Of a stretch of 64,000 nt of DNA, positions 1-51,447 are shown in pieces; position 1 is the first letter of the stretch; every line of letters begins with the position of its first letter. Location of the stretch: NCBI GenBank assembly GCA_046563655.1, contig CM102290.1, positions 12,958,001 to 13,022,000 of the forward strand, written 5' to 3'. Both the position numbers and the translations under genes were made by a program. The notes under the pieces are model-generated. The model had not been told where the DNA came from and did no database searches. It worked only from the letters and a program-made list of their open reading frames with translations. Source of the stretch: Yuukianura sp. NJ FZ-2021. Taxonomy: Eukaryota.

Positions 1-2046
1 TCAGTATGGACGTTCTAGTGGAGGAGCTGGAAGTTCTGCGTTTGGAGTTAAAAGGAAGGAACCACGACATCAGTGTGGACAGCGACATGAAAGAAGTCGT
101 TAACCATGCGGTAAGGCAACTACGAGGCAATTTTGATGTGTATTTTTCGAATTTGAAGCTAAGCTTTTAAAATTTTAAATCAATCTGTGTTCAAGGTTCA
201 TTGACAACCGAATTGTATTTCCTACATCAGGTTGTCCAATAACTCGAGGGTTTCAAAAGTCTAGTTTCAAACAATTTTTTCCCAATTTTGTTTAGGAATG
301 GAGGTGAAATTTAAGGGTTTTCGCCTTGCAAAATTTTTTCACAAAATTGAAAAACCCGAATTATTGGACAACCTGTTGTAGAAAAAAAACCTTTTCCTTG
401 TTCATGAACCTTAATTTGTGTAAATCTTGTGGAATTTAATCAGCTAACCATCCTGGGTCCTGGTCTTGTGCGTCGCGAGTTAATCCGAGTGGAATCTGCG
501 GGAATGAAGTCTACGCAGATAATGCTTAAACCGGTATCCTCTCTGCCAAATGTGCTGGAACTAGCCTATTATTCTACTTGTCTATCTCCAATCTATGCCA
601 TGGAGGCCGTCATTGGTATTCAATTTTCAAAATTTGGAAATTTCAGCAAATGCAACAACAAATTTCGTTTTTTGTAGTTTTTACACCACGTTTTTCAAAT
701 ATTTTCAACATTGTTTTTAGCAACCAGTATACTCGTGCTCAAGGGTGGAGAGCTGGAGGACCTCAGAAATCAGGCAGGTTATGTTTGTCATGTGACCGAC
801 ATTGAACTCGTTGCAACTTGCTTGGAACTGTGCGGAATTCTGCAAAACGAGTTCATCTTCCATCCACCTTGCCAAACACTGGAATTCTCCATTCGGAAAT
901 CCCTAGATGACCTTAAAGCCCAAGGAATTCTCAATTGTGGTCGCGTAAGTGTAAATCAAAGCTACAATGATTTTTTTTCTATATTTTACGAGAATGCTCA
1001 CCATGTTCGCTGGGGCTCCGCCTCAAACTCGTTCAGCCGTCCCAAGGTTACTTTAGCACCCAATGATACAAATGCGCTAAGAAAAAACACAAAATTTTGA
1101 TTTAAACAACCTTGAGCCGCCCATAATTTCAATTCCGCAATATGGCAGTTTTTTTAAACATTTATTAAAGTACCTTTCAAAATTTCTTAATTTTGTCTCC
1201 AAATTAGCAGGTTTCATAAAAGTCTCACTCACACCCAAAAATGTTCATCGTACAGACAGACAAACAAATCCCACATTTCTTTAATGTTATAATCGATATA
1301 AAATTAATAGTATTATACTTTTAATTATTCCAGGCAAGAATAAATTCAGAGAGCAACGACAAGGACGATGGAAGGCTGAGTTTACGAAATGTAAATTTGG
1401 TTTACGTACACACGGACGAGGAATCGCTTCGGAGGCTCAAATTTTTACACCGTTTGATTACACCGATTTTGGACACTTATGCCGTTTCATCCCTTGTGCT
1501 GAAACGTATCGTAGGATGTGAAGCCATAGAGAAGCATTTGCAACTGGACATGCTGGCTGAAGTCAAATGTCACCTCCAACAAGATTTAATTAATTACGGT
1601 AAATTGGGTACAGAAAAGCCTCTCTTACAGCAACTACATGTTGCAGTAAATTTTGTGATTACATGGTACCAAAGGCATTTGGTCACTCGATCCCTCACGT
1701 AATTTACTAAAAGTTGAGTTCCCTCTCAAAACCTAGATTTGAATGTATTCCGCTGAAAAAAAAATGTTGCCATAAGAGAGGTTTTGCTGTATTTTTTGAA
1801 TTTTGTGTCTAACTTAGTTTTTGTGAAGATTCGGGCTGTGATGTCTAATTTTTGGTTTGAATTTTTTTTAAAGGTGAAAGCCTTGCTCTGGACCCTATTC
1901 GAAATTTCATCAAACTCCTAGTAGGATGGGAAGTTTTGGAAAGTTTCACTCAAAATTATTTGACAAAATATGTTCTGACAGAGGCGTTTGACCTGGACGA
2001 CTCCGTGGACGCTGTAATTCGACGGGTAAAACGGTTCCAGATTTGA
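1..2046 (+). CDS. GPAM: 3' part of a mitochondrial-type glycerol-3-phosphate acyltransferase (GPAT1/GPAM/mino-like), multi-exon, 5'-truncated by the window
   Basis: GT-AG exons at about 1-110, 444-616, 721-944, 1335-1598 and 1874-2046. Peptides LELAYYS, LCGILQNEFIFHPPCQ, LKFLHRLITPILDTY and GESLALDPIRNFIKLL resemble the GPAT1 C-terminal half. TGA at 2044-2046. Confidence 0.75.
192..413. mobile_element. P-element-like MITE in a GPAT intron
   Basis: caaggttcattgacaaccga..caggttgtccaataact ... ttattggacaacctgtt..catgaacctta; same family as 40662 and 54904. Confidence 0.75.
1611..1789. mobile_element. MITE with CAGAAAAGCCTCTCTTA-type terminal inverted repeats (Tc1/mariner-pogo-like), intronic in GPAT
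   Basis: ta|cagaaaagcctctctta ... taagagaggttttgctg|ta, with TA flanks. A related copy lies at 39731-39912. Confidence 0.65.
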
Positions 2047-2746: not shown

Positions 2747-5700
2747 TTATTGCTCCCCGTCAAGAATCAAGTTTCGTCGAAACGAGCCAAATTCAGCGGA
2801 AAACTCGCTGAGTTCTTCATACTGTAAAAAGTCCAGGTCGTTGGTAATACAGCGACTGATTACATGCGCTACACCATTCCCCACTGGAATATCCGCTTTC
2901 AACACATTTATGTTGCCGTTCAAAGCTGTCAGAGTTCCTGAAGATTAAAAATGACACAATTTAAACTTAATAGCACCGTCAGTCCCGAATAATACAGTTT
3001 TACTTGCTACTTACTGCTGAGTCCATCCGAACAAACCGAGACCTTGATTTCCTTAAAATAGTTTGTCAGCAGAAATTGACCTTGGAGAAGTCCAGCGCTA
3101 AAGTGCGTACCGTTGACAATATGGTAGTTGACAAAATCTGAGTAAAAATATGCATTTTAGCAATACGTGAAAGGTTAAGGGCTTACATGGCTTGAGAGAC
3201 AAAGAATGAGAATATAAAGATTAAAGAACTGTGTGGGATTCGAACCCACTTCACTTCAATCCTGGAAGACCTCTTACGCCCACTGTACAAGAGAATCTTA
3301 AACTATTGAATTAATTTTGTAACTTACTTGTTAGAGTGTTCAAGTTGTACGCAAGTTTGTCATACTGCAGAGATTCGAAACAGGAATTGATTGGGATGAA
3401 TATTGTGTATGGCGTTTCTTGGTCCAGGTAGAAAAGCATATTGGAGTCCGTTACAGCTTGTAGAAAGACTGGAATCAAAGTGACACAAATTAGGCGGCAA
3501 ACAAAAATTTTAAAATGGCAAAAAATGTTGAGTACTTACAGGAAAAGTCAGGAATCTCTGCCAGGTATTGGGCAATACTTCTTCTGGGGATTGGAACGAT
3601 CACTTTGTCGACAACGTGTAGAAGTCCTGTCGTAGAATGTATACCGCCTTGAAGTACACGTGACCCGTCAATTGTGTATGTACTCTAAAAAAACACAAAA
3701 TTTTTAATTTTTGTGGTTACAGTTTTCTAATTGCTGAATATTTGTTGTTGTGGGCGTTACATAATCTGTGCCTGGGTTGTAAACATTAATACGAAGTCGA
3801 CTTCCGCGAAAATTGACAACTTCAAACTCATTTCCAACAGTATCGAAAGGAAGATTGACCTTGATGATATGGTTTGTTATAAAAGCAGTGAGCAGATTTA
3901 CGTCTGTCCGCAAGCTCTGAAGGAACCATGCTGGCAAAAGTTCAAAGGCACTGTCCACTGGCGCAAAAAATGTATAGTTATCTAGAAGAAAAAAATAATT
4001 TCAAAATTTTGACAAAAATATGAAGAAACATTAAATGTTGTAAAAAAAAGCGTACTTGACAGAGAGAAAAGAGGTTCAAGGCCTGCGTCCAAGATCATCC
4101 CGTAAATAATTCTGAGCTCAAGTTGAGCAATGACCTGCTCCATTGTGCAATCCACGGCTGTCACAGGCGTCAACCCACATTGATCCAAGCTTCGACGTTG
4201 CTGAACAGCGACGTCTACCGGAAAATAGCCGGGAGGTACAAACGGTCCTGGGGGAAGACCTGAACAGGTCTCAACGCTGGGAACTTCCTCCCCAGCAATG
4301 AACTCGCCAGGGATTACTTCACCGCCTTCTCCAGCTTGGTTGCATAAAGTGTTATCAAACTCAGCATTTGGGCCTAGCTGTGTACATTCGGGAACTACTT
4401 CCGGCTGCACTGGGACCTCCACTGCTACGGGATAGACTGGCAGTCCAGACTCCACCGGCACTTCAACAGGAACTTGGGCCAAGGCAGCGTGTTGTGCTTC
4501 TTCTGCTGCAAGTTGTGCTGCTTGGAAACTTTCTGCTTCGTATTGACTTTGAGCGGCTTCATAGCTTTGACTGGCTTGCTGTTGGTTGTACTGGAATTGG
4601 TTTTCTGCCGCAAGCTGTGATTCAATGGGAACAACGGGTTGCTGTACAGGAAGCTGTTCTGTGCCCAGAAGTTGTTGCTGTGCTGCTGCTGCTGCTGCTG
4701 CAATTTGTGCTGCTTGGAAGCTTTCTGCTTCGTATTGACTTTGAGCGGCTTCATAGCTTTGACTGGCTTGCTGTTGGTTATACTGGAATTGGTTTTCTGC
4801 AGCAAGCTGCGATTCAATTGGAACTATTGGTTGCTGTACAGGAAGCTGCTCTGTGCCCAGAAGTTGTTGCTGTGCTGCTGCCATTTGTGCTGCTTGGAAA
4901 CTTTCTGCTTCGTATTGACTTTGAGCGGCTTCATAGCTTTGACTGGCTTGCTGTTGGTTATACTGGAATTGGTTTTCTGCCGCAAGCTGTGATTCAATTT
5001 GAACAACGGGTTGCTGTACAGGAAGCTGCTCTGTGCCCAGAAGTTGTTGCTGTGCTGCTGCTGCTGCCATTTGTGCTGCTTGGAAGCTTTCTGCTTCGTA
5101 TTGACTTTGAGCGGCTTCATAGCTTTGACTGGCTTGCTGTTGGTTGTACTGGAATTGGTTTTCTGCCGCAAGTTGCGATTCAATTGGAACTATTGGTTGC
5201 TGTACAGGAAGCTGCTCTGTGCCCAGAAGTTGTTGCTGTGCTGCTGCTGCTGCCATTTGTGCTGCTTGGAAGCTTTCTGCTTCGTATTGACTTTGAGCGG
5301 CTTCATAGCTTTGACTGGCTTGCTGTTGGTTGTACTGGAATTGGTTTTCTGCCGCAAGCTGTGATTCAATTGGAACTATTGGTTGCTGTACAGGAAGCTG
5401 CTCTGTGCCCAGAAGTTGTTGCTGTGCTGCTTCTGCTGCTGCAATTTGTGCTGCTTGGAAACTTTCTGCTTCGTATTGACTTTGAGCGGCTTCATAGCTT
5501 TGACTGGCTTGTTGTTGGTTATACTGGAATTGGTTTTCTGCCGCAAGTTGCGATTCAATTGGAACTATTGGTTGCTGTACAGGAAGCTGTTCTGTGGCCG
5601 GAATTTGCTGCTGTGCTGCTGCAGCCGCTGCAAGTTGTGCTGCTTGGAAGCTTTCTGCTTCGTATTGACTTTGAGCGGCTTCATAGCTTTGACTGGCTTG

Positions 5701-8700
5701 TTGTTGGTTGTACTGGAATTGGTTTTCTGCCGCAAGTTGCGATTCAATTGGAACTATTGGTTGCTGTACAGGAATCTGCTCTGTGCCTAGAAGTTGTTGC
5801 TGTGCTGCTGCTTCTGCTGCTGCAATTTGTGCTGCTTGGAAACTTTCTGCTTCGTATTGACTTTGAGCGGCTTCATAGCTTTGACTGGCTTGCTGTTGGT
5901 TGTACTGGAATTGGTTTTCTGCCGCAAGCTGTGATTCAATGGGAACTACGGGTTGCTGTACAGGAAGCTGCTCTGTGCCCAGAAGTTGTTGCTGTGCTGC
6001 TGCTGCTGCCATTTGTGCTGCTTGGAAGCTTTCTGCTTCGTATTGACTTTGAGCGGCTTCATAGCTTTGACTGGCTTGCTGTTGGTTATACTGGAATTGG
6101 TTTTCTGCCGCAAGCTGTGATTCAATGGGAACTACGGGTTGCTGTACAGGAAGCTGCTCTGTGCCCAGAAGTTGTTGCTGTGCTGCTGCTTCTGCTGCTG
6201 CAATTTGTGCTGCTTGGAAACTTTCTGCTTCGTATTGACTTTGAGCGGCTTCATAGCTTTGACTGGCTTGCTGTTGGTTATACTGGAATTGGTTTTCTGC
6301 CGCAAGCTGTGATTCAATGGGAACAACGGGTTGCTGTACAGGAAGCTGCTCTGTGGCCGGAAGTTGTTGCTGTGCTGCTGCAGCCGCTGCAAGTTGTGCT
6401 GCTTGGAAGCTTTCTGCTTCGTATTGACTTTGAGCGGCTTCATAGCTTTGACTGGCTTGTTGTTGGTTGTACTGGAATTGGTTTTCTGCCGCAAGTTGCG
6501 ATTCAATTGGAACTATTGGTTGCTGTACAGGAAGCTGCTCTGTGCCGGGAAGTTGTTGCTGTGCTGCTGCTTCTGCTGCTGCAATTTGTGCTGCTTGGAA
6601 ACTTTCTGCTTCGTATTGACTTTGAGCGGCTTCATAGCTTTGACTGGCTTGCTGTTGGTTATACTGGAATTGGTTTTCTGCCGCAAGCTGTGATTCAATG
6701 GGAACAACGGGTTGCTGTACAGGAAGCTGCTCTGTGCCCAGAAGTTGTTGCTGTGCTGCTGCTGCTGCCATTTGTGCTGCTTGGAAGCTTTCTGCTTCGT
6801 ATTGACTTTGAGCGGCTTCATAGCTTTGACTGGCTTGCTGTTGGTTATACTGGAATTGGTTTTCTGCAGCAAGCTGTGATTCAATGGGAACTACGGGTTG
6901 CTGTACAGGAAGCTGCTCTGTGCCCAGAAGTTGTTGCTGTGCTGCTGCTGCTGCCATTTGTGCTGCTTGGAAGCTTTCTGCTTCGTATTGACTTTGAGCG
7001 GCTTCATAGCTTTGACTGGCTTGCTGTTGGTTATACTGGAATTGGTTTTCTGCCGCAAGCTGTGATTCAATTGGAACTATTGGTTGCTGTACAGGAATCT
7101 GCTCTGTGCCTAGAAGTTGTTGCTGTGCTGCTGCTTCTGCTGCTGCAATTTGTGCTGCTTGGAAACTTTCTGCTTCGTATTGACTTTGAGCGGCTTCATA
7201 GCTTTGACTGGCTTGCTGTTGGTTGTACTGGAATTGGTTTTCTGCCGCAAGCTGTGATTCAATTGGAACTATTGGTTGCTGTACAGGAATCTGCTCTGTG
7301 ATTAGAAGTTGTTGCTGTGCTGCTGCTGCAATTTGTGCTGCTTGGAAACTTTCTGCTTCGTATTGACTTTGAGCGGCTTCATAGCTTTGACTGGCTTGCT
7401 GTTGGTTGTACTGGAACTGGTTTTCTGCCGCAAGCTGTGATTCAATTGGAACTATTGGTTGCTGTACAGGAATCTGCTCTGTGCCTAGAAGTTGTTGCTG
7501 TGCTGCTGCTTCTGCTGCTGCAATTTGTGCTGCTTGGAAACTTTCTGCTTCGTATTGACTTTGAGCGGCTTCATAGCTTTGACTGGCTTGCTGTTGGTTA
7601 TACTGGAATTGGTTTTCTGCCGCAAGCTGTGATTCAATTGGGAACTACGGGTTGCTGTACAGGAAGCTGCTCTGTGCCCAGAAGTTGTTGCTGTGCTGCT
7701 GCTGCTGCCATTTGTGCTGCTTGGAAGCTTTCTGCTTCGTATTGACTTTGAGCGGCTTCATAGCTTTGACTGGCTTGCTGTTGGTTATACTGGAATTGGT
7801 TTTCTGCAGCAAGCTGTGATTCAATGGGAACTACGGGTTGCTGTACAGGAAGCTGCTCTGTGCCCAGAAGTTGTTGCTGTGCTGCTGCCATTTGTGCTGC
7901 TTGGAAGCTTTCTGCTTCGTATTGACTTTGAGCGGCTTCATAGCTTTGACTGGCTTGCTGTTGGTTATACTGGAATTGGTTTTCTGCAGCAACCTGCGAT
8001 TCAATTGGAACTATTGGTTGCTGTACAGGAAGCTGCTCTGTGCCCAGAAGTTGTTGCTGTGCTGCTGCTGCCATTTGTGCTGCTTGGAAACTTTCTGCTT
8101 CGTATTGACTTTGAGCGGCTTCGTAGCTTTGACTGGCTTGCTGTTGGTTATACTGGAACTGGTTTTCTGCCGCAAGCTGTGATTCAATTGGAACTATTGG
8201 TTGCTGTACAGGAAGCTGCTCTGTGCCCAGAAGTTGTTGCTGTGCTGCTGCTTCTGCTGCTGCAATTTGTGCTGCTTGGAAACTTTCTGCTTCGTATTGA
8301 CTTTGAGCGGCTTCATAGCTTTGACTGGCTTGCTGTTGGTTATACTGGAATTGGTTTTCTGCAGCAAGCTGTGATTAAATGGGAACAACGGGTTGCTGTA
8401 CAGGAAGCTGCTCTGTGCCCAGAAGTTGTTGCTGTGCTGCTGCTGCTGCCATTTGTGCTGCTTGGAAGCTTTCTGCTTCGTATTGACTTTGAGCGGCTTC
8501 ATAGCTTTGACTGGCTTGCTGTTGGTTATACTGGAATTGGTTTTCTGCCGCAAGCTGTGATTCAATGGGAACAACGGGTTGCTGTACAGGAAGCTGCTCT
8601 GTGCCCAGAAGTTGTTGCTGTGCTGCTGCCATTTGTGCTGCTTGGAAGCTTTCTGCTTCGTATTGACTTTGAGCGGCTTCATAGCTTTGACTGGCTTGCT

Positions 8701-11700
8701 GTTGGTTATACTGGAATTGGTTTTCTGCCGCAAGTTGCGATTCAATTGGAACTATTGGTTGCTGTACAGGAAGTTGCTCTGTGCCTGGAAGTTGTTGGGC
8801 TGCTGCAGCCGCTGCAAGTTGTGCTGCTTGGAAGCTTTCTGCTTCGTATTGACTTTGAGCGGCTTCATAGCTTTGACTGGCTTGCTGTTGGTTATACTGG
8901 AACTGGTTTTCTGCAGCAACCTGCGATTCAATTGGAACTATTGGTTGCTGTACAGGAAGCTGCTCTGTGCCCAGAAGTTGTTGCTGTGCTGCTGCTTCTG
9001 CTGCCATTTGTGCTGCTTGGAAACTTTCTGCTTCGTATTGACTTTGAGCGGCTTCATAGCTTTGACTGGCTTGCTGTTGGTTATACTGGAACTGGTTTTC
9101 TGCAGCAACCTGCGATTCAATTGGAACTATTGGTTGCTGTACAGGAAGCTGCTCTGTGCCCAGAAGTTGTTGCTGTGCTGCTGCCATTTGTGCTGCTTGG
9201 AAGCTTTCTGCTTCGTATTGACTTTGAGCGGCTTCATAGCTTTGACTGGCTTGCTGTTGGTTATACTGGAATTGGTTTTCTGCCGCAAGCTGTGATTCAA
9301 TTGGAACAACGGGTTGCTGTACAGGAAGCTGCTCTGTGCCCAGAAGTTGTTGCTGTGCTGCTGCCATTTGTGCTGCTTGGAAGCTTTCTGCTTCGTATTG
9401 ACTTTGAGCGGCTTCATAGCTTTGACTGGCTTGCTGTTGGTTATACTGGAATTGGTTTTCTGCAGCAACCTGCGATTCAATTGGAACTATTGGTTGCTGT
9501 ACAGGAAGCTGCTCTGTGCCCAGAAGTTGTTGCTGTGCTGCTGCTTCTGCTGCCATTTGTGCTGCTTGGAAACTTTCTGCTTCGTATTGACTTTGAGCGG
9601 CTTCGTAGCTTTGACTGGCTTGCTGTTGGTTATACTGGAACTGGTTTTCTGCAGCAACCTGCGATTCAATTGGAACTATTGGTTGCTGTACAGGAAGCTG
9701 CTCTGTGCCCAGAAGTTGTTGCTGTGCTGCTGCTGCTGCCATTTGTGCTGCTTGGAAGCTTTCTGCTTCGTATTGACTTTGAGCGGCTTCATAGCTTTGA
9801 CTGGCTTGCTGTTGGTTATACTGGAATTGGTTTTCTGCCGCAAGCTGTGATTCAATTGGAACTATTGGTTGCTGTACAGGAAGCTGCTCTGTGCCCGGAA
9901 GTTGTTGCTGTGCTGCTGCTGCTGCCATTTGTGCTGCTTGGAAGCTTTCTGCTTCGTATTGACTTTGAGCGGCTTCATAGCTTTGACTGGCTTGCTGTTG
10001 GTTATACTGGAATTGGTTTTCTGCAGCAAGCTGTGATTCAATGGGAACAACGGGTTGCTGTACAGGAAGCTGCTCTGTGCCCAGAAGTTGTTGCTGTGCT
10101 GCTGCTGCTGCCATTTGTGCTGCTTGGAAGCTTTCTGCTTCGTATTGACTTTGAGCGGCTTCATAGCTTTGACTGGCTTGCTGTTGGTTATACTGGAATT
10201 GGTTTTCTGCAGCAAGCTGTGATTCAATGGGAACAACGGGTTGCTGTACAGGAAGCTGCTCTGTGCCCAGAAGTTGTTGCTGTGCTGCGGCTGCTGCCAT
10301 TTGTGCTGCTTGGAAGCTTTCTGCTTCGTATTGACTTTGAGCGGCTTCATAGCTTTGACTGGCTTGCTGTTGGTTATACTGGAATTGGTTTTCTGCCGCA
10401 AGCTGTGATTCAATTGGAACTATTGGTTGCTGTACAGGAAGCTGCTCTGTGCCTAGAAGTTGTTGCTGTGCTGCTGCTTCTGCTGCTGCAATTTGTGCTG
10501 CTTGGAAACTTTCTGCTTCGTATTGACTTTGAGCGGCTTCATAGCTTTGACTGGCTTGCTGTTGGTTATACTGGAACTGGTTTTCTGCAGCAAGCTGCGA
10601 TTCAATTGGAACTATTGGTTGCTGTACAGGAAGCTGCTCTGTGCCCAGAAGTTGTTGCTGTGCTGCTGCCATTTGTGCTGCTTGGAAGCTTTCTGCTTCG
10701 TATTGACTTTGAGCGGCTTCATAGCTTTGACTGGCTTGCTGTTGGTTATACTGGAATTGGTTTTCTGCCGCAAGCTGTGATTCAATGGGAACAACGGGTT
10801 GCTGTACAGGAAGCTGCTCTGTGCCCAGAAGTTGTTGCTGTGCTGCTGCCATTTGTGCTGCTTGGAAGCTTTCTGCTTCGTATTGACTTTGAGCGGCTTC
10901 ATAGCTTTGACTGGCTTGCTGTTGGTTATACTGGAATTGGTTTTCTGCCGCAAGCTGTGATTCAATTGGAACTATTGGTTGCTGTACAGGAAGCTGTTCT
11001 CCTCCTAGGGAGACTGGAAGTCCAGACTCCACCGGCACTTCAATAGGAACTTGTGCTGCGGCAGCAAGTTGAGCTGCTTGGAAACTTTCTGCTTCGTATT
11101 GACTTTGAGAGGCTTCATAGCTTTGACTGCCTTGCTGTTGATTGTACTGGAATTGGTTTTCGGATCCAATTGGAACTAACGGTGGTTGTACCGGAACCTG
11201 TTCTGCTCCCGGATATGCTGGTACTTTATACTCGACCTGAAAGCTGCTTTCAACGGGATTAGCGCTCATTCCAAGTTCTCCTACTGTTAATGTTGGACTC
11301 AATATCAAATTTTCGGGGTAATTTTCTTCGTTTGGTTCCATAATATTCTCTGGAGTCATTCCAAGAGGAAGGGCCTCTGGTTTACTTTGCATTTCCGGTG
11401 ACAATTCGTTTTGTGCTACGTTGTATTCCCTGTCAGTACTTACTGCATTTTGGAACTCTGGAGCACCCTGTTGTATTGGGGAAAGCTCTGGAGCTGCGTT
11501 TGCCGTGGGCGTGAACTGATCCGGTCCAAATCCTTGACCTGGAATTTGATTTACTGTAGTTGGCCATCCTTGTTGATCTAAATTTCCAACGTTTTCTTGC
11601 AAATCGGTTACTGGAATAGATGCAACTCCTTCTGGAAGAGGAACCTGATTTACATTACCTGGCGATGGAATTGCTGTAAAGCATGGGCCTTCCGGTGTTT

Positions 11701-11884
11701 CGTGATACTCGTAAATTTTCTCCGGTTGTGATTGCAATTCCTGTTGTGCTGCGGATCCAAATCCGAAAAGCGTCTCCCAAAAAGTCAAAGTATTTGGATT
11801 CCAAGATACATCTGTGTCCAATGTTGAAGCCGCGGAACACAGTGACGCAATGTAAAAAAGTGCACTACACCGAATTAAGTTCAT
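2747..11884 (-). CDS. Secreted fasciclin (2x FAS1) protein with a giant Gln/Ala/Glu-rich tandem repeat; reading frame interrupted in this sequence (stop 8375-8377, frameshift ~7640)
   Basis: ATG at 11884 begins a signal-peptide-like sequence (MNLIRCSALFYIASLCSA). One large exon runs to ~4057. Short exons then encode DNYTFFAPVDSAF..HII..RLRINVYNP, TIDGSRV..GLLHVVDKVI, PYTIFIP, FVNYHIVNG and ADIPVGNGVAHVI, which are FAS1 H1/YH/H2 motifs twice over. Stop at 2747-2749. Confidence 0.8.
3228..3287 (-). repeat. Degenerate tRNA-derived (SINE-head-like) fragment in an intron
   Basis: Minus-strand GTGGGTTCGAATCCCAC forms a T-arm/B-box hairpin, with a weak A-box-like TACAGTGG upstream. No full cloverleaf. 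Confidence 0.35.
4490..11200 (-). repeat. Coding tandem array of ~35 units of 180-192 bp plus one degenerate unit
   Basis: Unit QQQLLGTEQLPVQQP(I/V)VPIESQLAAENQFQYNQQQASQSYEAAQSQYEAESFQAAQ(M/I/L)A(n). Units are near-identical at DNA level and vary in length through the GCA poly-Ala tract. Confidence 0.98.
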
Positions 11885-14566
11885 AATGAAAGTTCAAAAT
11901 GTCACTTTGATGCTTTCGGTCCTTCTTATTGTAAAAAATGGAACTGATTGTTACTACAATGCAAACGTGTGATGTTTTCGCAACAATCTGTGAAAAAACT
12001 ACTGCTTTCCCATGCGCCCTATTGTACTGTTCTAAAAGTATTTAAAATTTACAAAACCGATATTGTCGATTTTCGTCGCAGTTGTACTCACTGAATTGCC
12101 GCAGGTAAATACTTGTGATCTTTAGAAAAGTGACGCTTTTATTCCGAGTTTGTTAGAAAGCAGGAATGTTCGAAGAGCAACTGGAATGGAGACTTTTAGC
12201 ATACCGCGGAAAATGAGGCTCGTCCGGCTTTTGAGGTGATTGAAACATGGGTTTATGGCGAATTCTGCTAAAATCACGGAAGATAGTAAAACAGCAAGCA
12301 ATGATAAAGGTATTTATTATAATTGAGATAAACTAACTAATGTATTGTTAACTCATTAACTAAATCTGTCTAGAGAGGTGAGTTAGGTGTTTAAGAAGAG
12401 AATGTATGTTTTATTCCAAAATTCTCGTATTACTTTGTACAATAAGTGCGTCCTATGTTCTTGTATTAGTAAAATGAAGTCACTTGCGGATTTTGCGGAC
12501 GTTGTTCGCTAGTTTGCATCGAAAATTTATTAAAAAAAAAAAAATCAAAAATTTCTGGAGTGTATTAAACGAGAAGAGAGAATAAAGTGCATACTACAGA
12601 AATAACACATTCGGTTTGGATATTCGATCGGAAGAAAACTATAACCATGTCCTTATCCGCGGTGGTTTGAGGGATCAACAGCCAAGACTTTTACCTTTTA
12701 CTTTTACCTTACCTTGACTTTTCACCTGAGTTTCAATATGAAATCCACAAAAATGGAACAAATGTTCCTCTCTTTATCAAAAGTATTGTTGTTTATCAAA
12801 ATGATCTTGATCCACAATTTTATAATTTAATAATTTAAATTTTGATAAACGTTTTACTGAATTTAATAAATTTTTTAATAGCGCTATTAATACTAAAAGT
12901 ATAGTTTGAATTTTTCACCTTTTATGCAAGTAATGTGTATTTTGTTACGGGTGTGTCCAATTAAGTTTTAATTCAGAACATGAAGTTTTATTCTGTATGT
13001 ATTATTACTTTGTATATATTATAATATTATTTATATTATATAATATACTTTTGATTCGATTCAAGTAACGCCAGAAGAGGGACCTTGAAAAACCTTAACC
13101 GTTGCCTCACCTTAGCCGTAACCTTCACCGTTTTCAATGCAAAACATCGACCTAACTGTAGACAATTGGTTTTGATCAAAGTTCAAGGATGACCTCTGTT
13201 CTCTCCAAATGGAATTTGTATACAATTTGAAAGGTCGGGTCAAAATTGACAAGGTCATTCTTATGCCCCACTTCATTTGTCCCAATGTTCAACATTTTCC
13301 TTCAAACAGCTAATTTGACACCGTAACTTCAAGGTTTTCAGCAGAACTTTGATTCTCACCATTTTAAAACGAAGTAGGTAAAGTATTTTTTTTTTTTTGT
13401 AAAACATAGATGCCATGAAAGCATATGCTGTGTTGACACTTCTGGGTCAGAGGTCGACATTCTACTAACAACTGCCACAATCCCCAGTTCAATTTGAGTA
13501 AACATCATTTCTTGGTTCTAAGGTTTCCAAGTGATTAACATTTCAAGCTTAATTTCCGGGTAGGCGTGAACATTTAATAAAAGTGTTTTGTGTAAAGTCT
13601 AACCTCAAACCTAACGTAATTTTTATTGGGGGATTGACCAACTCTTTAGTAAATGGGGAATAAGATGTTATGCAGAAAAACGATTGTGCAAAACGTAACT
13701 GGTTACAGTTACAACAGTTTCCTACAAAATGTCATGTCACATCGATGTGTCCAATTCTTTTTCCAATAACAAAATAAGTAAGTACACTTGGCGTCTTTTT
13801 GTGTAAATACTTACTAAAAGCAAAATTAAAAGAAAGAGTTGCACTGCATCGGAATTGCAATAAAGCAGATGAAGTCACTTTGTATACACGTAGTAGCATC
13901 CAATCCATTTTTAGGCTTTGTTTTGGTCGATTTTTGCACTCTTTTGTGCTGTTCCTTCCCTTTGGACTTTTAAGTGGTCCGGGACATTCAACTTATACTT
14001 ACAAGTACATCTACTATCCCATTCAACTCATCCTGGACCAAACCCGGCTAGTTGTGTCAAGTGACTATCAATTAGTACTTCCTGCGACTGATTAACTTCA
14101 ACGGACACCATTAGCTAAGGCCGAGAAACAACGGAAGAGCGTATCCAAGTTAACGCTGAGAAGATAAAATGTCGTCAAGAGTAGCCTAACTGTAACTCTC
14201 AGCTGGGTCATCCTGGTCCAGGTCCAGTCCACGTTAAATTATCGTGTCAAACTCAAAGTCAAGAGGTTTGACTTAAAACAGTGTCACTATGTAATATCTG
14301 CCATGTCAACTCTTCTTTGGTTAGTCCAGTTCAATAGGTCTCTGTATTATGCATCATAAGGTCTTCTGCGTAAATTTAAGATAACAGTTCCAGATTAAGA
14401 CCGCAAAGTAGAAGAGAGAGGCTGTTATTCTTAAAAAGCTGAACCTATTTGTTCTTGATCTATCTTTAGAAGTTCATTTTCAATGGGCCAACACGACTGC
14501 CGCTGCTAGTACGTCAACTTTTGGACCTAACTCAAAAAAATTGCTATTTGAGTCCTCCGAAACCAA

Positions 14567-18418: not shown

Positions 18419-21400
18419 TTAGATTTTGCTTTCCATTGAAATTGGAGGAGGAAGCTCTTGGTTCCGTGAAACAATCGTAACAGATGACACTCTTGCCTGT
18501 TGGTAAGCAGCGATGGTGTTCTGGCTCAGAAACCTTAACGAAAAGATAAAATTAAAACCCAATTACCGTTAACTAATTCAAAAATAGTGGTAAAGTATTT
18601 CTCTTACTTTAGAATTACGTAGACAGCAACCACGGAGATGCCGATGACTAAAACTTTATACGCCGGTTGCGGAAGAATGTGACATGCTGCCCATGCACAC
18701 AAGAAAATAGCAGCAATGGCCGCCACCATGAGACTCAGTTTCAGCCAATGAGCGGCAGAAACGTCTGAACATGACGACCAGCGAAAACGAGATTCAACTT
18801 GTAATTTGTATGGAGATTTGCACACGGCGCATGACAAAGGATTCCCTCGGGAGGCGAGCTAAATAGTCAAAACTCAATTACTTTAAACCATATTCGTTTC
18901 TTCTCAAGAAATCAAATTCAAATGAAATAGGAACCTCTTGGAGCCAGATCCGGAGACAATCGTGATGAGAACTTGCCACATCTCCCCGGCAATCGCACGG
19001 TTGAATTAAGGGACCCATTGTAGAATCATTCGACGGGTCACAACAAATAAAACAAATGACATCTCCGCTCTGCGCCGAGTCATCAGAAACTACACAAAAG
19101 TGGCAGAAAACTATAAAAATCTTGCAATAGTGCCTGTGTCAGCGTGGACATATGTGTTCTCGTGCACTCTACTTTAAGTAGATGTCCATCATAACGATAA
19201 CACCCACTTAAAGTCGAGTGCAGACTACTTTGTGATGTTATGTGCTTAGAGATGAGTTACTATTCACAATTACCTATAGTATTAACGCTGGCTACTTCCT
19301 CTTGCTCATTGACTTTAAGTAACTTCTTGGGATTGAGAATCCACAGCTGATCGGGGCGGTTCACATTCCACAAAACACATGGAAACCATAACACAACTCC
19401 GATCTCAACAGCTCGAAAAACGATGTCGTGATAGTTTCTCTTTTCGACGTCCACTCTATAGAAAGATACAAACATAAATATCAAAACCAAAAAAATCAAT
19501 AGTAATGTTCCCTTACTTATTTTTCCAGAATTCGCCAAGGATATCCGACAGAATAAAGACGATTGTAATCAAGATCATGGAGGCTTGAGACACCAACCCA
19601 AGACGCGATTGGTTCAGTTGAGAAATATTCACTGGCTGCGAGTTATCCACCTATAAAAGTCAAATTAATAATTATTACATACCAAAAAATTAATAAGCTC
19701 CAGCCTACATTGAGAAGCAAGCGGTTAACCAAACCAGTACTTAAAAATGAGCAACTACTTGGGCACAGAACAAATATAAAAAAGCTGCCATGCCTGATTT
19801 CCACTAACTAAAGATAATGTGTCTCCTTTCTTGCAAGATGGATCCTGTTGAAGATGTCTGCTTGGACTTAGAAGCAGAAAGCCTCCTCTGACCTACGTAC
19901 AAATAGTTCGTTGTGACTTAAAAGTTTGCAATTCGAGAATGTCGAATGTCAAGGAAAGGATGTAGGATGGATTGAAATTCGCTGTTCGACATGTGAATTT
20001 TTGGGGACTAAAAAGTAAAGTGAGGTATGGAATATTCATAGCAACCTAACCTGAAAAAAACAGCGGAGTTTTTCTAGTACGATCAGCGAAAAAAACGAAC
20101 GTTTTTACAAATACATGAAATTTGAAGATGAATTGAAGTTAAATGACTTGAATTGAAAGATTTTTAAAAACGAGGTTCGTTCATAATTGACATTTAAATG
20201 TTATTTCTTAAATTAATTTGAAATGTTTTAAACTTTGTTAATTATATTGTTCAACAAGTTCGAATGTAGTTTGGGGTGACTTGAGATTTTTGCAAAAACG
20301 TTCGTTTTTTTCGCTGAACGCTCAGTAGAAAAACTCTACTGTTTTTTCAGGTTATAGTTCATGTACAAATACTTACAGTGCATTACTGTATAAACATTTA
20401 GGTAACCGGGATGAGAGGTGAGAATACGAACATATATATACTGTTATCATTTTATAATTTAGTACCTAATTAATTAGCTAGTCTTACCTTGAAGTAGACT
20501 TCTACGCCGTATATTAGGAAGAAAATGACCACAACTAGTAAAAGAACTGCATAACACCCGTTAAATATGTTGAAATAGTAACCCTGCAAAGGAAATACCT
20601 GGTACAGACTCCATAGCATGACAGCGTTAACTTAACAGTGTATAATTTGCATAATGCACAATCGATTACCCGTTCTGTCTCGTTATTGTTAGCCAGCACA
20701 AGTAGCAATTGCACTAGTAGGATTGAATAAGTAAGGATGTTGAAAGCCAAAAATCCGAGGAAGGATTTGGACAGGAAGCGATGAGATTCAAAACAAACGT
20801 TCCTCAGATGAAATCTCTACAAAAAAAAATTAGTTTGTTATTGAACAATCAATCCCGCTGTGTAATGAACAACAGTGGAACATAAAAAACGTACCTCCGC
20901 CCAGAAGCAGACAATCAATGACGAACCAGTAAGTAGTAGGGGGTAGTACGCACTAAGCAGACTCAGCAGCCAATCTGATGTCCATGTTGCCTGAAACCGA
21001 AAAATTAACAATCCATTGAGATACTGAGAACACAATACCTAGCAAGAATATCATAGTTCTACTAGAGCTATTCGGTTCCAATTGTGCTTGAAATACTACT
21101 TTTTCTCCTTACCGACACCGCATAGTACGCAGTCCGCAACGATGAAGCTAAGAATACAATTGCATATATAGCTTTCGGAGTGGTTGGGCTGAACGCGTCA
21201 CGGAAGCAACTTCCTTTGTCCGCACTATTTCGACATGACATCACCATGGCGATGAGAAGCTGTATGAAAGACACCAACGCAACGACAAAGTATGTTGCAG
21301 CAAGCCCTACGTAATAATTGAGATTCATCCCTCCGCATTCGCTCCCAGCAAACTTAATCTGAAATTGGAAATCCAATTTCATTGCTTATTATCAACATAT

Positions 21401-21562
21401 GATAGGTCATAGTTCATTGTCATACTGAAACCTACCTCACAAAAGCAAGTGCCATTGAGGCAGTCGCCGTGTCCAGAACAGTTGCCGGTACACATTCCTC
21501 GGAAAATGTCGGAGTAGATTTCACGTAGATAGCTGTCGATGGACATGACCGTTGGTGTAACC
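18419..21562 (-). CDS. Membrane protein with N-terminal EGF-like module, multiple TM helices and a C-terminal RING-variant (C4HC3) domain followed by two TMs; putative membrane E3 ligase; 5' exons unresolved
   Basis: CTGNCSGHGDCLNGTCFCE (EGF-like). TM exons YYPLLLTGSSLIVCFWAE, FKVRGGF and VEIGVVLWFPCVLWN. CFICCDP..LIQPCDCRGDVASSHHDCLRIWLQE..CAVCKSPY (RINGv). Stop at 18419-18421. Confidence 0.85.
20049..20352. mobile_element. MITE with ~65-bp imperfect terminal inverted repeats, intronic
   Basis: ta|acctgaaaaaaacagcggagtttttcta..cagcgaaaaaaacgaacgttttt ... aaaaacgttcgtttttttcgctg..tagaaaaactctactgttttttcaggt|ta. Confidence 0.75.
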
Positions 21563-24500
21563 TGGAAAGGACATAGAATAAATTCCATTAGCATTGACAT
21601 TACATTCCCGTTGTTATTTCTCACAACAATGTTCTAACAACAACATATGTAACATAGTAAATATAAGTCTACTCTCATAACATTAGACAATTCAGTTTTG
21701 TTTACAAACTGACTAAGTGCAATGGAAAAGTCCATAATCTGATTTGTGAACGCGTGAACCTTTTCGCAGCAGCTGAGCTACCAGACCTTGAGGCCTTTTG
21801 CAATAACGTCGCATTCCCACCCAGTATGTTATACGCCAGTATTTCCTAACCTAATCATTGACGATTGACCATTAGGGCTTACCCATTTTACATTATCGAG
21901 TACGTTCAAATTATCGTTTCAGTTGTTTTGTCGTGCACTTTGTACAGAAAAGATACAGATAAGTTCTGAAATGTCATTGAAAAGTTCTGAAAGTTCTGAA
22001 ATGTCCTTGAAAAGGAAGCTCAATGTCAATCCAATTCAAAATTTAAACGAGTTGTCCAAAGCTCCCAAGTACTGATGACCTCTGCCTGTGTTTCTAGTGG
22101 TCTCTGGCCTGGCTGCTGTCTGGTGCTCTCTGGGCAGGAAGCAACTAATTAAGAAGGAAATGGAACAGTTATGAAAACAAATGATCGATGCTGACTCGTT
22201 AAGGGTTTAATCGTTATGTATTTTTTAGTACAGAGTAGGTATGTCAGTGTTAGGACATACAGAATTGGTTAATTACCATGTTGGTATGAACCAACATACA
22301 ATAAATTCTTAATTAACGAACCAAAGTCCCTCCGTCGTTCGTAAGAACTACGACGTATACGATCACAGAGACTAAACTTGCGGAAGTGTGGAGGTCAGCC
22401 AATTGTGGATAAACCGCAACTTATTTCTTAACGGAAAGAAACTAGAAAGTACAAGGTCGACTTACGGAAGAAGAGGAACCGATGATGGGGGTCAAGTAGT
22501 GGGAGTGTGACTCCCTCAGCTAGTTGTAAGGTTTTGAGTGTATGGATACTAACTGGCAACTGTAACCACAAATTCCAGAGATAAGTTGAATTATTCCTAA
22601 ATGTTAATTAATACTGAACAGAACAATGAGATGAGATGCACTGGCTGATTGACAAGGAGTTGGGAGGCAGTTGAGAGCTATGAAGTGCATGACCATATCT
22701 TTTACTCTGCTGATATACATATATCCACGTTGGTGCAAATTGTTGGGTTGAAGTAAGGACTGAGTTGCCTAATTGCAACTACACAATTTCCCTCTGCAGT
22801 CATCTTCTGTGGCTACGATATATGACTATGCCAGACTGTAGAATGTAGAAATTTGCTACCACATTAGCAAAAACCTAATCTGGAGCGGTAACATAATTGC
22901 CGTAAGGTGTAGCCAGTCTTTGTTGCCAGTGATTGGCCAAGCTCTATGTGTAGATTTACTGTCGCTAAGCCTTACTCCAACCAGCAGTTGCTATTCCTAC
23001 CATGTGGTTTTTATTACCCTCGGCCTCCGTCCGTTTGCCGTCGTAGGCTAATACCGAATACCGCAAGCACAAGCGAAAGTTGTCTAGCGCACAACTAAAA
23101 CTCCGAACTTCTATGACTGCAGTTCGTCCCGTTGTCGGAGTCAAGCTATTACGTCGAAAAGCAATTAAGCGAACATTCTATTCTTGCAATTTGACTTCAT
23201 GACATTAAAAACGCGAATCTTTGAAAAAACATACAAAGGGGGACCCTTCCCTTCAAAGAATTTCTTTTGCGGAAAACGATCCGTAACCGTAACTATGTAG
23301 TGGCGGACTTACATCTCCGCATTAGTATCAAAATATATTTAAAGTTTTAATGAAGACGCGTTAAATCATGTAACACGTATTCATTTTGTATTTTGCAAAA
23401 TCCATTACATAATCCGAATTTACAACCACCGCCTTCCTATTTAAACTTAATGGTCTATTAAAATTAAGGCCAAAAACAGCACTTTACAGTTTAGTATTGT
23501 GTTTCACGTGTCCTCAATTTTGGTTCCGTCAGAGGGTGGTTTAAAATTTCTCTCTCTATAAAACGTATGGAAGTATTGTTTAACTCGGGAGAAATAACAA
23601 TGGATTTGGTTTCAAAACTACCGCCGTCTGGTTCCATGCTTTTTTTTATAGAGAAATGGATTGATTGCTGTCTGTTTTGAACATATCTATTTTTCTTGTC
23701 TATAACATTTCTATACGCTTTGCAACATTTTAGGTTCAAACCGGTTTTTTGCAACTCAGCGTCACAAATAATTCTTAACTGTGGTTCTCCGTTGCCAATT
23801 TCCAGTTTAGAACGGCTTGAATTTAAAGAAACTTTTTAAAATCTACCCAACAAAAGGAAATAAATTCCACAAAGATTCTCAGAATAGAAGCGGTAGGACG
23901 GAACTGTTGTTGTTAAAAATCTCAATTACTTTGTTCATTAGATTCCAGTTGATGTTTCCTTGTCAGAGATGTTTTAATTTCCACTCTTACGAATGTGGAG
24001 GACGCCGACGTTAAATTTGCACTCACTAGTGTTATATTATTCGACAAGGAAGATACATAGTGCAAGAATATATCACGGCAGTTTTTGCTTTTTTTTTTGC
24101 GCTGATGACGATCAACACAAAAAAAAAAGTTTGCAAAAAAGTTGCATTTTTTCACACTCCAAACCAGTAATTTCTGAGTTTCATCTGCAGTCGCTGGGTA
24201 AATCTGAAGATTTCCAAACTCCAGGGAAACTTTCTCTATTCGTTTTTTTTTGAATGAAGACATAAAATTTTACAAGGTCCACCGACCTCGACGTCGAGGA
24301 TTTGAATGTTTACTATAACCGTGGGAAAATTTAAAACAAAAAAGTGTGAATGGCAGAAAAACAAAGTTGGTTTTAATGAGTAAGCAACTACGAAGGCACT
24401 GGAAATTGAAATACGCCGCTGCTAGAAAACTCCATTGACGTGATCAAACGCTGTGTAATGAACCTGACTGATTGCGTCAATTGGATAGTATCTGTTTGCT

Positions 24501-25283: not shown

Positions 25284-28200
25284 TTACTCGTGACACCAAG
25301 TTCCCTGCTTTGTCCTTGATCGTATCCAGTCATTCAATTCTAAAAATGAAATGGATTTGGAAAAATAATCATAACAATATTTAGAATTTAGGGTGAACAA
25401 CGAATACCGGTCACTCGGGCGTAAACTCCTGGTTTTCCTTGTCGAGCACATCCTGCAACAGAGAGAAAGTCTGCACTTTCCGAACGAATTAGTAACGTTG
25501 AAGTTGTTTAAATATTTACCTTCTCCAAACGATACGACGCCGATCTGCATGAATGCGCCATCATCTCGCTTCAGAACAAATGGACCACCAGAATCACCCT
25601 AATACAAACAATTTCTATTAAACAAAGGTGAAGAGTAATAATAAAATTAAGTATAAAAATTCATGTCGTTCTTGGCAGGCGTCGGTCCCTCCCGTTTCGT
25701 ATGCAGCGCAAACCATTCTACCAAAACAAAACTTTAGTTAAAACCACATTACATTCTTATATACGCTGACAATAGAAACATCATTCATAATTTCCAAAGG
25801 TAGGCTACAGTTTTAGCCTAACCTTGAGAATTATGAAATACGTTTCATATGAAGTGCCAAGCAGAATAGCGACATTACCTGTCCGTAATCGTCAAACCTG
25901 CGGTTTTGTTCCTCTTGTAGCTGTTTCCACATTCTTCATTGGAAATAATAGGAATATCAGCCTCTTTTAGTATCATGGACTGTTTTCCTCCTTCGGCTAT
26001 TTAAGACACAATCAAAATCAATGGCAACTAAAAGTAGCTAGAATTAAATTTGAATGTAAAAAAAAATAATTTGAATGTAAAATTAAATGTAAAAAATGGC
26101 TTAAAATGTCCAGAGACCGGTAACTCCCCATCCTAGAACAAATGAAAACAATAAAGTCGTGTTAGAGATATTTTTAAAAGATTGTACAGTGGAACCCTAC
26201 ATTGCGGAACTTTTAGCTCCGCCCCCCAGAATGGCGGGATATCGCAAAACTTAAGCTTTTAGAAGGATTTTGTTTGCAAACCAAGAAAGAACTGCAAACA
26301 AATATTTAAGAAAAGTCATTATTTGAAGTTTACCGGTAACAGTTCCTATCTTGCCAACGAACATGTCCCACATATCCCTCGGCGGCAGGCATACCGTGCG
26401 GACACTGGGTTCACCAGATGAGACCAAGCTGACTGGCTCATTCAGTTCAACTATACTGATGTCGTAATCTTGACTCACAGGACTAAGAACCAAAATGTCG
26501 CTTTTATAGAACTCAATGAAAATAGAACATAGTAGCCAAGGTTTGTTGACTCTGATTTTCTTTAACAGGTTGGGCAAAACCTCATGTTTTTATGATTTCG
26601 CAACAAAAAAAAAGTCCTTTCATTTCAGCTTACTCATAAAATGGGTGCGGATGAATTGAGGCTATTCCACGGCGTATTACCGGTTCTGACGTATCCTTGA
26701 TATTGTAGGCATTGAGAATCACGTCTCCAGCTTGAGGTAGTGCAACCAACCTTAAAAGTTTTACCTAACTTTACATCGCTTCCGACATCACACAACCTTC
26801 ATCTGCTTTAACCCGGACTTACCCAGTTGTAATGACACAGTGAGCAGCAGTTACCTGCAGTAGTACAGAAGAACCTCTCTTTTAGCAACTCTATTTTTCT
26901 TGGCGGGATACCGTAAAACCTAAGTTTTTGGCCTTACAACATAGCGGTCGTTGACTAAGGATCCGCCACAGAATGCATTGCTTCTTGTTTTCGGAACGAG
27001 GGCGACTTGCCACTTCCAGTAATGTGGAGGAGCTTCTTTGCCACCGACTATGCGATGTGCTGGAGAGCTTTGATTATCTTTAGCAGAATTGTCGGCTCCA
27101 GGAATACCGCATGCTTTACAAAAAAAAAATACTAAATATATAGCTTTAAGAATCTGCTAGCAAAAATTTCGTGTTTGTTTGTCGGATGGGAACACGGTTG
27201 TTTGAATTGTTGTTTGTTTTTTCTTAACAGGTTATACCATAACTCCATTTTTCAAATTTTCAAATTCTTCAGAGAACAGAAGAAATGAGCAGAGAAAGTC
27301 CGTACTTACAACAATTTGCAACTGCAGGAGATGGTAGTGTCTTGGTGATCACATCAAGTCCAGTAGTACTGGCAGCACATGAAACCAAGCAACTGAATCC
27401 TTTTCTGGGAATAGCAATGGACCGAGAAAATGTGGCAACAAGAATTGTGGAGCCGGTTGCTGTATTTTTCGGTCCATTGTTGCCACAAAACCTAAAACAT
27501 ATATTGTATGTGCAAGCATTCCCGTTAGTACACTGTGCTAAATCACTTACCTTTTGGATACCGAGAACTCGTCAGTGATCTCCAAACGAGCACTGGAGCA
27601 GTCAGTAGATTCAGCGAGTTCAAAGAGGTCACAGGAAATTACTGGGTAACATCTAGACCCCTACATAAGTTTACCATTTTTAAAGTAATTTTCTCAACTT
27701 ACCCCAGTTTGACACTTAGAATAAAAATGTTACATAAAACTTCCAAGTACAGTCAAGACCCGTTTGAAAGAAGGGCTGAAATTGTTGAAATGTTGTTTGT
27801 ATTTTGTAAGTGGTGTTCATGTTGATGGGGTAAGAGCCGCACATAACATCTTTAAAAGCGAAAAACGACCTGATATTATTTTTGATGAAAATGTATTTAA
27901 GAATTAAGATTGCCTTCTGACACAGTTAGGGGTGTAAATCCGTCACTGCTTTTTAGAAGTCCGGATTTCGGAATTTGACGGTTTTTATTAAGAAGTTCGG
28001 ATTTCCGAATACCTAGGATTTACCATAATTTTTTTTCTTCTAGTTTTTCAAAATTATTAACGCTGATTTCAAGTTAAGCAACAAAAAAAAGTTGATAACG
28101 GACAACGGACCTCACGAATGTTCATTTTTCATTAACTTGAATTAACTTCGAGGTATTCGGCCACCTGGTGTAGAAATATTTCAATTTTTGGATTTTCGTG

Positions 28201-41682: not shown

Positions 41683-45740
<4,058 letters not shown>

Positions 45741-50894: not shown

Positions 50895-51447
50895 GCTTTT
50901 CCCCACTATGTCTTTTTTAGACTCCCACCACTACCAAATAGTGTCTAAGAATCACACGTGGAGTTGCATAACGTGAAGGAAACCTAATCCAATTCTAATA
51001 TAATACATAATATAATATATTAAATGTACAAACTGAATTCCGGAGTTGGAGAATCAAGTGTCCCTGGCCTCTTAAGGCTCTTAAGTGAAGTGGCTCTGTA
51101 TGGTCTGACATTTGGGTCTTACCTGGGAGATTCAGGAGTGGACTGACTTCTTGCGCCTCTTGATGACAGACATCTTGCCATCCGTAAATGCCTTGAGACT
51201 ATAAATGTGCACAAGGAAAATATAAATTATGACCGAGTCACAAGGGAAACAATGAATTAGTCCTTAGCATTTGACTAAAAGCTCTTTTCAGAAATTGTCA
51301 ACTTTCTGTCTCTCCTGGGACTTAGGTGTTTAAGCCATACACAATTGCTTTCCTTTCTAAATGTCTCCAACTGGAACCAAATCCTCATCTGCTTTGTGTC
51401 ACGAACAATCGGACTTCTTTTAAAACTCAATTAAATCAAAATCAAAT

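Follow-up and report, generated by a model that had tools for sequence, protein, structure and literature searches.

A candidate gene for a secreted protein joining a long acidic repeat array to two FAS1 domains in Yuukianura sp. NJ FZ-2021

Introduction

Periostin and TGFBI, the closest described counterparts of the gene reported here, are secreted animal proteins with four FAS1 domains in tandem. FAS1 domains share conserved blocks, namely T-x-F-x-P near the start, a YH block, and N-G-V-x-H-x-I near the end. Plant fasciclin-like arabinogalactan proteins combine a signal peptide and FAS1 domains with Pro-rich low-complexity stretches. FAS1 proteins also occur in secreted arthropod materials. 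In the major ampullate glands of black widows, fasciclin ranks with the most abundant annotated transcripts (PMC3879032), and it is found in the spider tubuliform gland, dope and egg case (PMC8399404) and in barnacle adhesive proteomes (PMC8371367). Here we analysed 64,000 nt of DNA from Yuukianura sp. NJ FZ-2021 (assembly GCA_046563655.1, contig CM102290.1, positions 12,958,001 to 13,022,000; hereafter the window), and describe on its minus strand a candidate gene of six exons (2747..11884) whose conceptual product joins a long acidic repeat array to two FAS1 domains.

The predicted protein resembles periostin and TGFBI in being secreted and carrying tandem FAS1 domains, and the YH and D-I...NGVxH positions are present in its second domain. 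It differs from them in having two FAS1 domains instead of four, in lacking an EMI/CROPT-type N-terminal domain by Pfam, and in the 2,100-aa array upstream of the FAS1 pair, where its own relatives have a Pro-rich spacer. The fasciclins of silk glands and barnacles, likened here by description and not by sequence comparison, are FAS1 proteins secreted alongside biomaterials; the papers cited above present them as companions of the material, with no description of a giant repeat protein. Like fibroins, spidroins and insect glue proteins, the candidate has one very large repetitive exon in the centre, flanked by non-repetitive ends, and a signal-like start, but it has no sequence or domain relation to them by Pfam, a different composition (G 1.5%) and no packing periodicity. 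Silk- or fibroin-specific terminal domains and repeat motifs were not found by Pfam in the leader, repeat or linker. The likeness to plant fasciclin-like arabinogalactan proteins is one of layout only, as it is for the relatives described below; these proteins belong to another kingdom, whereas the FAS1 domains here are closest to those of animal periostin and TGFBI. A literature search found no paper on a FAS1 protein with such a repeat, which does not in itself prove that there is none.

Results

Gene model and FAS1 domains

The frame opens with an ATG at 11884 and closes with a TAA at 2747-2749 (-), and the conceptual product is ~2,884 aa long when the two frame breaks described below are read through as X. 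Five introns (74, 76, 71, 190 and 77 nt) were placed from the sequence, each GT..AG with a pyrimidine tract, and the C-terminus of 421 aa was spliced by script from the coordinates. Exon 1 (4056..11884, -) measures 7,829 nt and holds a signal-like start, the leader, the array, a Cys linker and the start of FAS1 domain 1. Its donor is GTACGC and its junction is colinear with P0002, one of three relatives treated below. The original prediction, made from the letters of this stretch, had proposed a single repeat exon of ~7.8 kb; the length was right, but the exon is not one open frame in the assembly, being broken by a TAA (8375-8377) and an extra base (7638-7642).

From the ATG the frame reads MNLIRCSALFYIASLCSAAS (11825..11884, -), which aligns to the N-terminus of the relative P0001 and appears signal-like, as judged by eye and not by a predictor. 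The leader that follows has 235 residues and is rich in P (12.8%), Q (10.6%) and E (10.2%). The expected signal peptide and Pro/Glu-rich leader were in this sense recovered. Within the leader lies a conserved N-terminal motif, LTFWETLFGFG...PEKIYEYHETPEGPCFT (11669..11788, -), recognised by BLASTP to P0001 and in an alignment of the window protein with its relatives (A1). Downstream of the array, a conserved Cys-containing linker, ETCSGLPPGPFVPPGYFPVD...QCGLTPVTAVDC (4140..4272, -), was identified by its match to P0001.

The remaining exons encode the FAS1 pair. Exon 2 (3761..3981, -; NYTFFAPVDSAFE...) carries the core of domain 1, and exon 3 (3540..3684, -) its end (GLLHVVDKVIVP) together with the start of domain 2. 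Exon 4 (3328..3468, -; YTIFIPINSCFE) gives the N-terminal part of domain 2 and is colinear with P0002, exon 5 (3015..3137, -; FVNYHIVNGTHFSAGL) its middle, aligning to NFVNYHIVNGTYYSAGL of P0002, and exon 6 (2747..2937, -) its end (KADIPVGNGVAHVIS), followed by an acidic tail and the stop TAA; this last exon aligns to the end of P0002. Pfam PF02469, with a curated cut-off of 22 bits, matched exon 2 (E 4.2e-09, 37.1 bits, profile 25-92) and exon 3 (E 1.9e-04, 22.1 bits, profile 94-123). From exon 2 into exon 3 the profile coordinates continue without a gap, in support of the GTAACG donor chosen at that junction. Domain 2 was scanned as separate exon fragments; those of exon 4 (E 1.2e-03, 19.4 bits, profile 6-45) and exon 6 (E 0.13, 13.0 bits, profile 99-121) fall under the cut-off when taken alone, and the exon 5 fragment alone had no Pfam match. 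The two FAS1 domains had been expected on small exons. PF02469 does match exons 2, 3, 4 and 6, but the first ~30 residues of domain 1 are encoded on the giant exon.

The conserved FAS1 blocks could be followed in both domains: YTFFAPVDSAFE and GLLHVVDKV in domain 1, and YTIFIPINSCFE, NYHIVNG and NGVAHVIS, as well as KADIPVGNGVAHVI, in domain 2. They align to the blocks of periostin by way of P0002. On its profile matches and conserved blocks, the predicted protein is a member of the FAS1/fasciclin domain family. Further FAS1 matches were absent from the 117 other open reading frames (ORFs) of at least 75 aa in the window. Pfam gave no family for the leader or N-terminal 328 aa, the repeat or the 148-aa linker piece, and the N-terminus had no match among PDB sequences. 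When these 328 aa were compared with longer proteins, 0 of 7,179 candidates scored, which is weak evidence.

Of the five introns, only intron 4 (3138-3327, 190 nt) is long. At 3231-3247 (-) it contains a fragment resembling a tRNA T-arm, GGGTTCGAATCCCACAC, present in a single copy in the window, which may be the remnant of a tRNA-derived element. ARAGORN detected 0 tRNAs in the window.

Relatives of the predicted protein

We searched 1,835,955,588 representative proteins by phmmer with 2.7 units and the linker, and obtained three matches at E <=0.001. For P0001 (E 1.5e-21) and P0002 (E 3.1e-08) the match runs through the linker and the beginning of FAS1. The third match, P0003, is a cadherin-like repeat protein from bacteria (Pfam Cadherin_4) and was set aside as spurious; with a single unit, its BLASTP E was 4.4. 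A further relative, P0004, was found by a word-based search with P0002. The lengths of the three relatives are 729 aa (P0001), 640 aa (P0002, on contig L001) and 617 aa (P0004).

The strongest alignment was obtained for the C-terminus. The spliced 421 aa match P0002 with 47% identity over 362 aa (E 2e-117), colinear across the five junctions and reaching into the C-terminal tail. P0002 itself scores 132.2 bits with Pfam Fasciclin, in two stretches. In P0004, extra stretches of 26, 25 and 24 aa fall exactly where the window gene has introns 1-3, including the junction between exon 3 and its neighbour; the introns were evidently read through in this gene call. P0001 matches the Cys linker with 64% identity over 78 aa, and the N-terminus of the window protein by BLASTP with 34% identity over 79 aa (E 3e-12; FWxTLxGxG ... 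GPCF). In alignment A1 the FW..L.G.G and GPC[FY] elements are found in the window protein and P0001, and partially in P0002 and P0004. The common plan of A1 consists of a signal peptide, the N-terminal motif, a low-complexity stretch that does not align, the Cys linker and FAS1. In the relatives this stretch is Pro-, Gly-, Thr- or Glu-rich and roughly 200-500 aa long. P0001, P0002 and P0004 thus share the N-terminal motif, Cys linker and FAS1 pair with the window protein, and P0004 also three intron positions. They differ from it in their short Pro-rich spacers, none of which has the Q/A/E unit, in contrast to the array of 2,125 aa in the window, and in a P[LM]CPL motif that is absent from the window leader. 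By these alignments the three are orthologs or close paralogs in other organisms. The gene calls of P0001 and P0004 are truncated or run through introns.

P0002 lies on the 2,702-nt contig L001 as one uninterrupted ORF with no introns. In the window gene and in P0004 the FAS1 region is interrupted by introns, so L001 resembles a spliced transcript. From a relative, this indirectly supports the placing of the N-terminal motif, spacer and FAS1 domains on a single mRNA; it is not evidence for this locus itself. The start called for P0002 lies inside the true frame: an ATG in the same frame 21 nt further upstream, at 136-138 of L001, adds MRWLGVL (L001 136-156), and the extended start gives MRWLGVLVGVFSLACLALG, a classical signal peptide.

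Among solved sequences, P0002 is nearest to periostin (5yjh, 1.5e-28) and TGFBI (5nv6, 6.1e-23), and its two FAS1 domains can be aligned with periostin domain pairs 1-2 and 3-4, the YH and D-I...NGVxH blocks included. Of named proteins, a TGFBI-like one from Lingula anatina (P0005, 936 aa, 30% identity, E 1.7e-89) comes nearest to this pair; it has six FAS1 domains and was compared through the FAS1 region of P0002 only. With two FAS1 domains and no EMI-type N-terminal domain, the window protein is not periostin or TGFBI proper, and groups with P0001, P0002 and P0004. A word search with the whole length of P0002 gave only P0002 and P0004 among 7,997 candidates, Pro-rich words having probably crowded out relatives. 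A search by region gave 11 of 6,146 including P0002 itself, mostly bacterial fasciclin proteins, and a metagenome scan with P0002 gave nothing beyond its own contig. An AlphaFold2 model of P0002 with A1 had a mean predicted local distance difference test score (pLDDT) of 40.7, too low to use.

The repeat array

Tandem Repeats Finder reported one array at 4493..11000 (-), with a period of 186 bp, 34.9 copies and 93% matches, in line with the ~35 near-identical units of ~62 aa that had been predicted. The units range from 180 to 192 nt (60-64 aa), and a diverged first unit starts near 11146. A typical unit, rich in Q, A, E and S, translates as PIESQLAAENQFQYNQQQASQSYEAAQSQYEAESFQAAQMAAAAAQQQLLGTEQLPVQQPVV. 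Only 14 residue types occur over the 2,125 residues of the array, and the reduced alphabet noted in the original prediction was confirmed at this length, with K, R, D, C, W and H all absent. The composition is Q 27.3%, A 20.8%, E 10.1% and S 8.1%, followed in order by L, P (5.0%), Y, V, F, I, N, T, G (1.5%) and M. Each unit contains ~6 Glu, zero basic residues and one Ser-Tyr-Glu triplet. The G+C content of the array is 0.46-0.48, against 0.33-0.40 around it, with a strong strand skew.

The inner 34 units have a mean DNA identity of 96.0%, and the first unit is 86.6% identical to them. Diverged edges and a homogenised centre are the pattern expected of unequal exchange, to judge from the unit sequences. 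The first and last units (about 11146-10893 and 4553-4400, -) end in AQVP[IV]EVPVESGLPV, and the inner units end in QQQLLGTEQLPVQQP. The shared tails at the edges suggest that the array may have grown via duplication inside one ancestral unit.

Search of the repeat for relatives, as the original prediction had proposed, gave none among the representative proteins (phmmer query as above) and none in Pfam, and only a chance-level match (E 0.06) among PDB sequences. The unit itself recurs in sequencing reads. Contigs matching it at >=90% were found in all four DNA runs examined (85, 38, 15 and 16); these come from two studies and carry two organism labels, but three are from one sample, possibly the source of the assembly, and only the fourth is independent. 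In runs X1, X3 and X4, contigs link a unit end to a unit start via 19 or 31 letters, giving units of 180, 189 and 192 nt.

The array is under coding constraint in the frame of the gene. Among 34 units, the diverged first one being left out of the count, alleles that differ between units in the Q/A/E frame comprised 18 synonymous changes, 13 non-synonymous changes and 1 stop. With 37 synonymous and 146 non-synonymous sites, the ratio of non-synonymous to synonymous polymorphism per site (pN/pS) was 0.2 (Fisher p = 4.5e-07). Only the antisense frame that shares this codon register came close (0.25); the other four frames gave 0.95-6.3. The non-synonymous changes were mainly conservative (M/I/L, I/V, L/V, G/A). 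A 15-nt anchor occurred 36 times, and 34 of its 35 spacings were multiples of three (180-216), the remaining one being 187.

Two long ORFs also run through the repeat on the plus strand, 4302-7301 (+) of 999 aa and 7633-11046 (+) of 1,137 aa. These are open only because the unit has no stop in that frame. An excess of synonymous change among units was absent from both, with pN/pS of 3.55 and 0.95.

Frame breaks and predicted shape of the unit

The assembled array contains two breaks of the frame. The first is an in-frame TAA in unit 15 (8375..8377, -), where every other aligned unit has GAA. The second is one extra base in unit 19, within GTTCCCAATT (7638..7642, -), which shifts the frame by +1 and makes this unit 187 nt long; GTTCCCAATT blends the CCAATT and CCCATT variants of the unit. 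They divide the frame of exon 1 into three ORFs (8375-11893, 7634-8374 and 3982-7644). Both are singletons, in units 15 and 19 of 35, in the middle of the array. Read contigs over 8265-8425 were only 47-61 nt long, variants being dense there, and position 8377 does not appear in the table of variant letters in either direction. Inserted or deleted letters were listed at this stretch in 0 of 4 runs, a listing that proves nothing on either break. Errors of consensus building or polishing in the centre of a near-identical array seem to us a likelier source of the two breaks than decay.

We modelled three units with AlphaFold2 from the single sequence and obtained a mean pLDDT of 64.7 and a predicted template-modelling score (pTM) of 0.24. 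The model has helices at 40-88 and 102-147, of 46-49 residues each with pLDDT ~80, separated by hinges of 13-18 residues with pLDDT <50. With modest confidence, each unit may therefore be pictured as one ~47-residue helix and a Pro-rich linker or hinge. The hydrophobic moment of the helix at 100 degrees was 0.22, against 0.36 +/- 0.18 in shuffles, 76% of which reach 0.22. A coiled-coil test found no heptad register that concentrates hydrophobic residues and no amphipathic pattern in the unit helix. As an amphipathic signal is absent, we make no claim of self-association for the unit.

Neighbouring features

Pfam identified several exon-sized ORFs elsewhere in the window: GPAT_C at 678-1097 (+), a MARCH-type RING domain (RINGv) at 18881-19138 (-), a teneurin-type EGF domain at 21382-21633 (-), trypsin at 26923-27156 (-) and ST7 at 63730-63999 (-). 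An insulinase-like Peptidase_M16 with middle and C-terminal domains was found at 58582-61974 (+). These neighbours and the short introns of the candidate gene (71-190 nt) indicate, as far as sequence goes, an animal with a compact genome of about one gene per 7 kb. Two long ORFs, 43184-44158 (-) of 324 aa and 45213-45986 (-) of 257 aa, are Q/P/S/T-rich with poly-Gln and His runs and had no Pfam family; they are probably exons of a low-complexity nuclear protein. The 42-46 kb stretch that holds them has raised G+C and GC skew. A 19-nt tandem repeat at 51444-51578 (7.1 copies, 70% matches) is unrelated to the FAS1 gene. Rfam gave 0 matches on the whole window.

Discussion

The gene is real, and the original prediction described most of it correctly. 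We consider it about an even chance (roughly 0.5) that this metazoan gene encodes a secreted, periostin/TGFBI-like matrix protein with two FAS1 domains and a lineage-specific polyanionic spacer. A secreted architecture in which a lineage-specific acidic repeat is followed by two FAS1 domains had been predicted, and it is borne out by Pfam, by composition and by the alignment to P0002. The accompanying remark that the architecture was unlike any recognised one did not hold, as P0001, P0002 and P0004 share its parts and the FAS1 pair is periostin/TGFBI-like. The family layout would comprise a signal peptide, the FWxxLxGxG...GPC[FY] motif, a fast-evolving low-complexity spacer, the Cys linker and two FAS1 domains. 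In the lineage of the window gene the spacer would have grown to ~35 Q/A/E/S-rich units, homogenised by unequal exchange. The C-terminal FAS1 pair, which has kept the YH and D-I/NGVxH motifs, could anchor the protein to cells or matrix as in periostin and TGFBI. The array would then act as a very long, strongly acidic and hydrated spacer or brush, made of helix units joined by Pro-rich hinges, and not as a self-packing fibre. Its Gln, Tyr and Ser-x-Glu sites could serve cross-linking, sulfation or phosphorylation, a suggestion that we infer purely from composition.

Several points weigh against a functional matrix protein of this kind. The assembled frame ends at codon 1170 with the TAA and shifts once more after it; read literally, the two breaks would give a product without the FAS1 domains. 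The gene is known here from DNA sequence alone, and the four sequencing runs found for it are all of DNA. In-frame spacing of 34 of the 35 anchor intervals is weak evidence for selection, since the length variation of the array is located in a run of GCA trinucleotides. The helix model was built from a single sequence and has the low pTM given above. The searches yielded just three relatives, all without a name or a study of their own, and the function proposed for the family is carried over from distant FAS1 proteins of vertebrates. What the protein binds, how it is modified and in which tissue it is expressed are likewise matters of inference.

Alternatively, the array itself could be the working part, a bulk structural or adhesive protein in the style of fibroins, spidroins or glues that self-assembles into a fibre, cement or egg coat, with the FAS1 pair as an accessory. 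We regard this as a minority possibility. One giant repetitive exon between non-repetitive ends, a signal-like start and units as near-identical as those of many silk and glue genes all agree with it, as does the presence of FAS1 proteins in secreted arthropod materials (PMC3879032, PMC8399404, PMC8371367). The composition, though, is unlike that of known fibre formers, being dominated by Q, A and E, poor in G and devoid of K, C and H. A unit has ~6 acidic residues and not one basic residue, so that neighbouring chains would repel one another except in the presence of cations or at low pH. Neither the hydrophobic moment, which does not exceed that of shuffles, nor the missing heptad register speaks for packing, and Pfam gave no match to a silk or glue family. 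The Pro-rich spacers of ~200-500 aa in the relatives make a bulk material unlikely as the ancestral role of the family. The sequence gives no reason to prefer a fibroin or glue to a matrix spacer, and the fibroin, glue or cement function of the original prediction is speculative, weakened by the low G and absent K and C, the lack of periodicity and the two frame breaks. A related idea gives the acidity a purpose: the Glu-rich units would bind Ca2+ or mineral in a mineralised or ion-hardened structure, tied by the FAS1 pair to the secreting epithelium. The strong net negative charge without basic residues would suit such a role, and so would the Ser-Tyr-Glu triplet of each unit as a possible phosphorylation site, a triplet that we take to fit the secretory-pathway kinase consensus. 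Known acidic mineral-matrix proteins are typically Asp-rich, but the array has no Asp at all, and it matches no known family; we think this role very improbable.

It is also conceivable, though unlikely, that the gene was recently inactivated or is present as a null allele, the TAA and the 1-nt insertion being real and the full protein no longer made. Two independent disruptions stand in the assembled sequence, and the library of 1.84 billion proteins contains no match of the protein to itself. Set against this are the small number of lesions, just two in 7.8 kb, each a singleton in the central part of the array, for which a consensus is most difficult to build, and the inserted base, which in blending the CCAATT and CCCATT variants resembles a polishing artefact. 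GT..AG is retained at all five introns, and no lesion interrupts the FAS1 exons, which are 47% identical to P0002. The constraint between units also speaks against inactivation, although it could predate a very recent one.

In a bolder and rather improbable reading, the protein would be the first known member of a new class of biomaterial proteins that are secreted, a polyanion of >2,000 residues without Lys, Arg or Asp whose helix-hinge units are tethered by a FAS1 pair. The animal family to which it belongs would be an undescribed one, with a spacer evolving as fast as silk and glue genes, and the array might form a hydrated gel, a coat or a cation-set cement in a structure peculiar to this lineage. 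If the breaks are real, the locus is merely a recently dead gene. If the frame is intact in the animal, the product would be one of the largest FAS1 proteins and a candidate for an unusual acidic biopolymer. It would also offer a clean case in which the low-complexity spacer of a conserved matrix protein has been replaced and expanded in one lineage. As the array has no Lys or Arg, tryptic proteomics would miss >2,000 of the ~2,900 residues, and the protein could be abundant in the animal and yet have gone unnoticed by that method.

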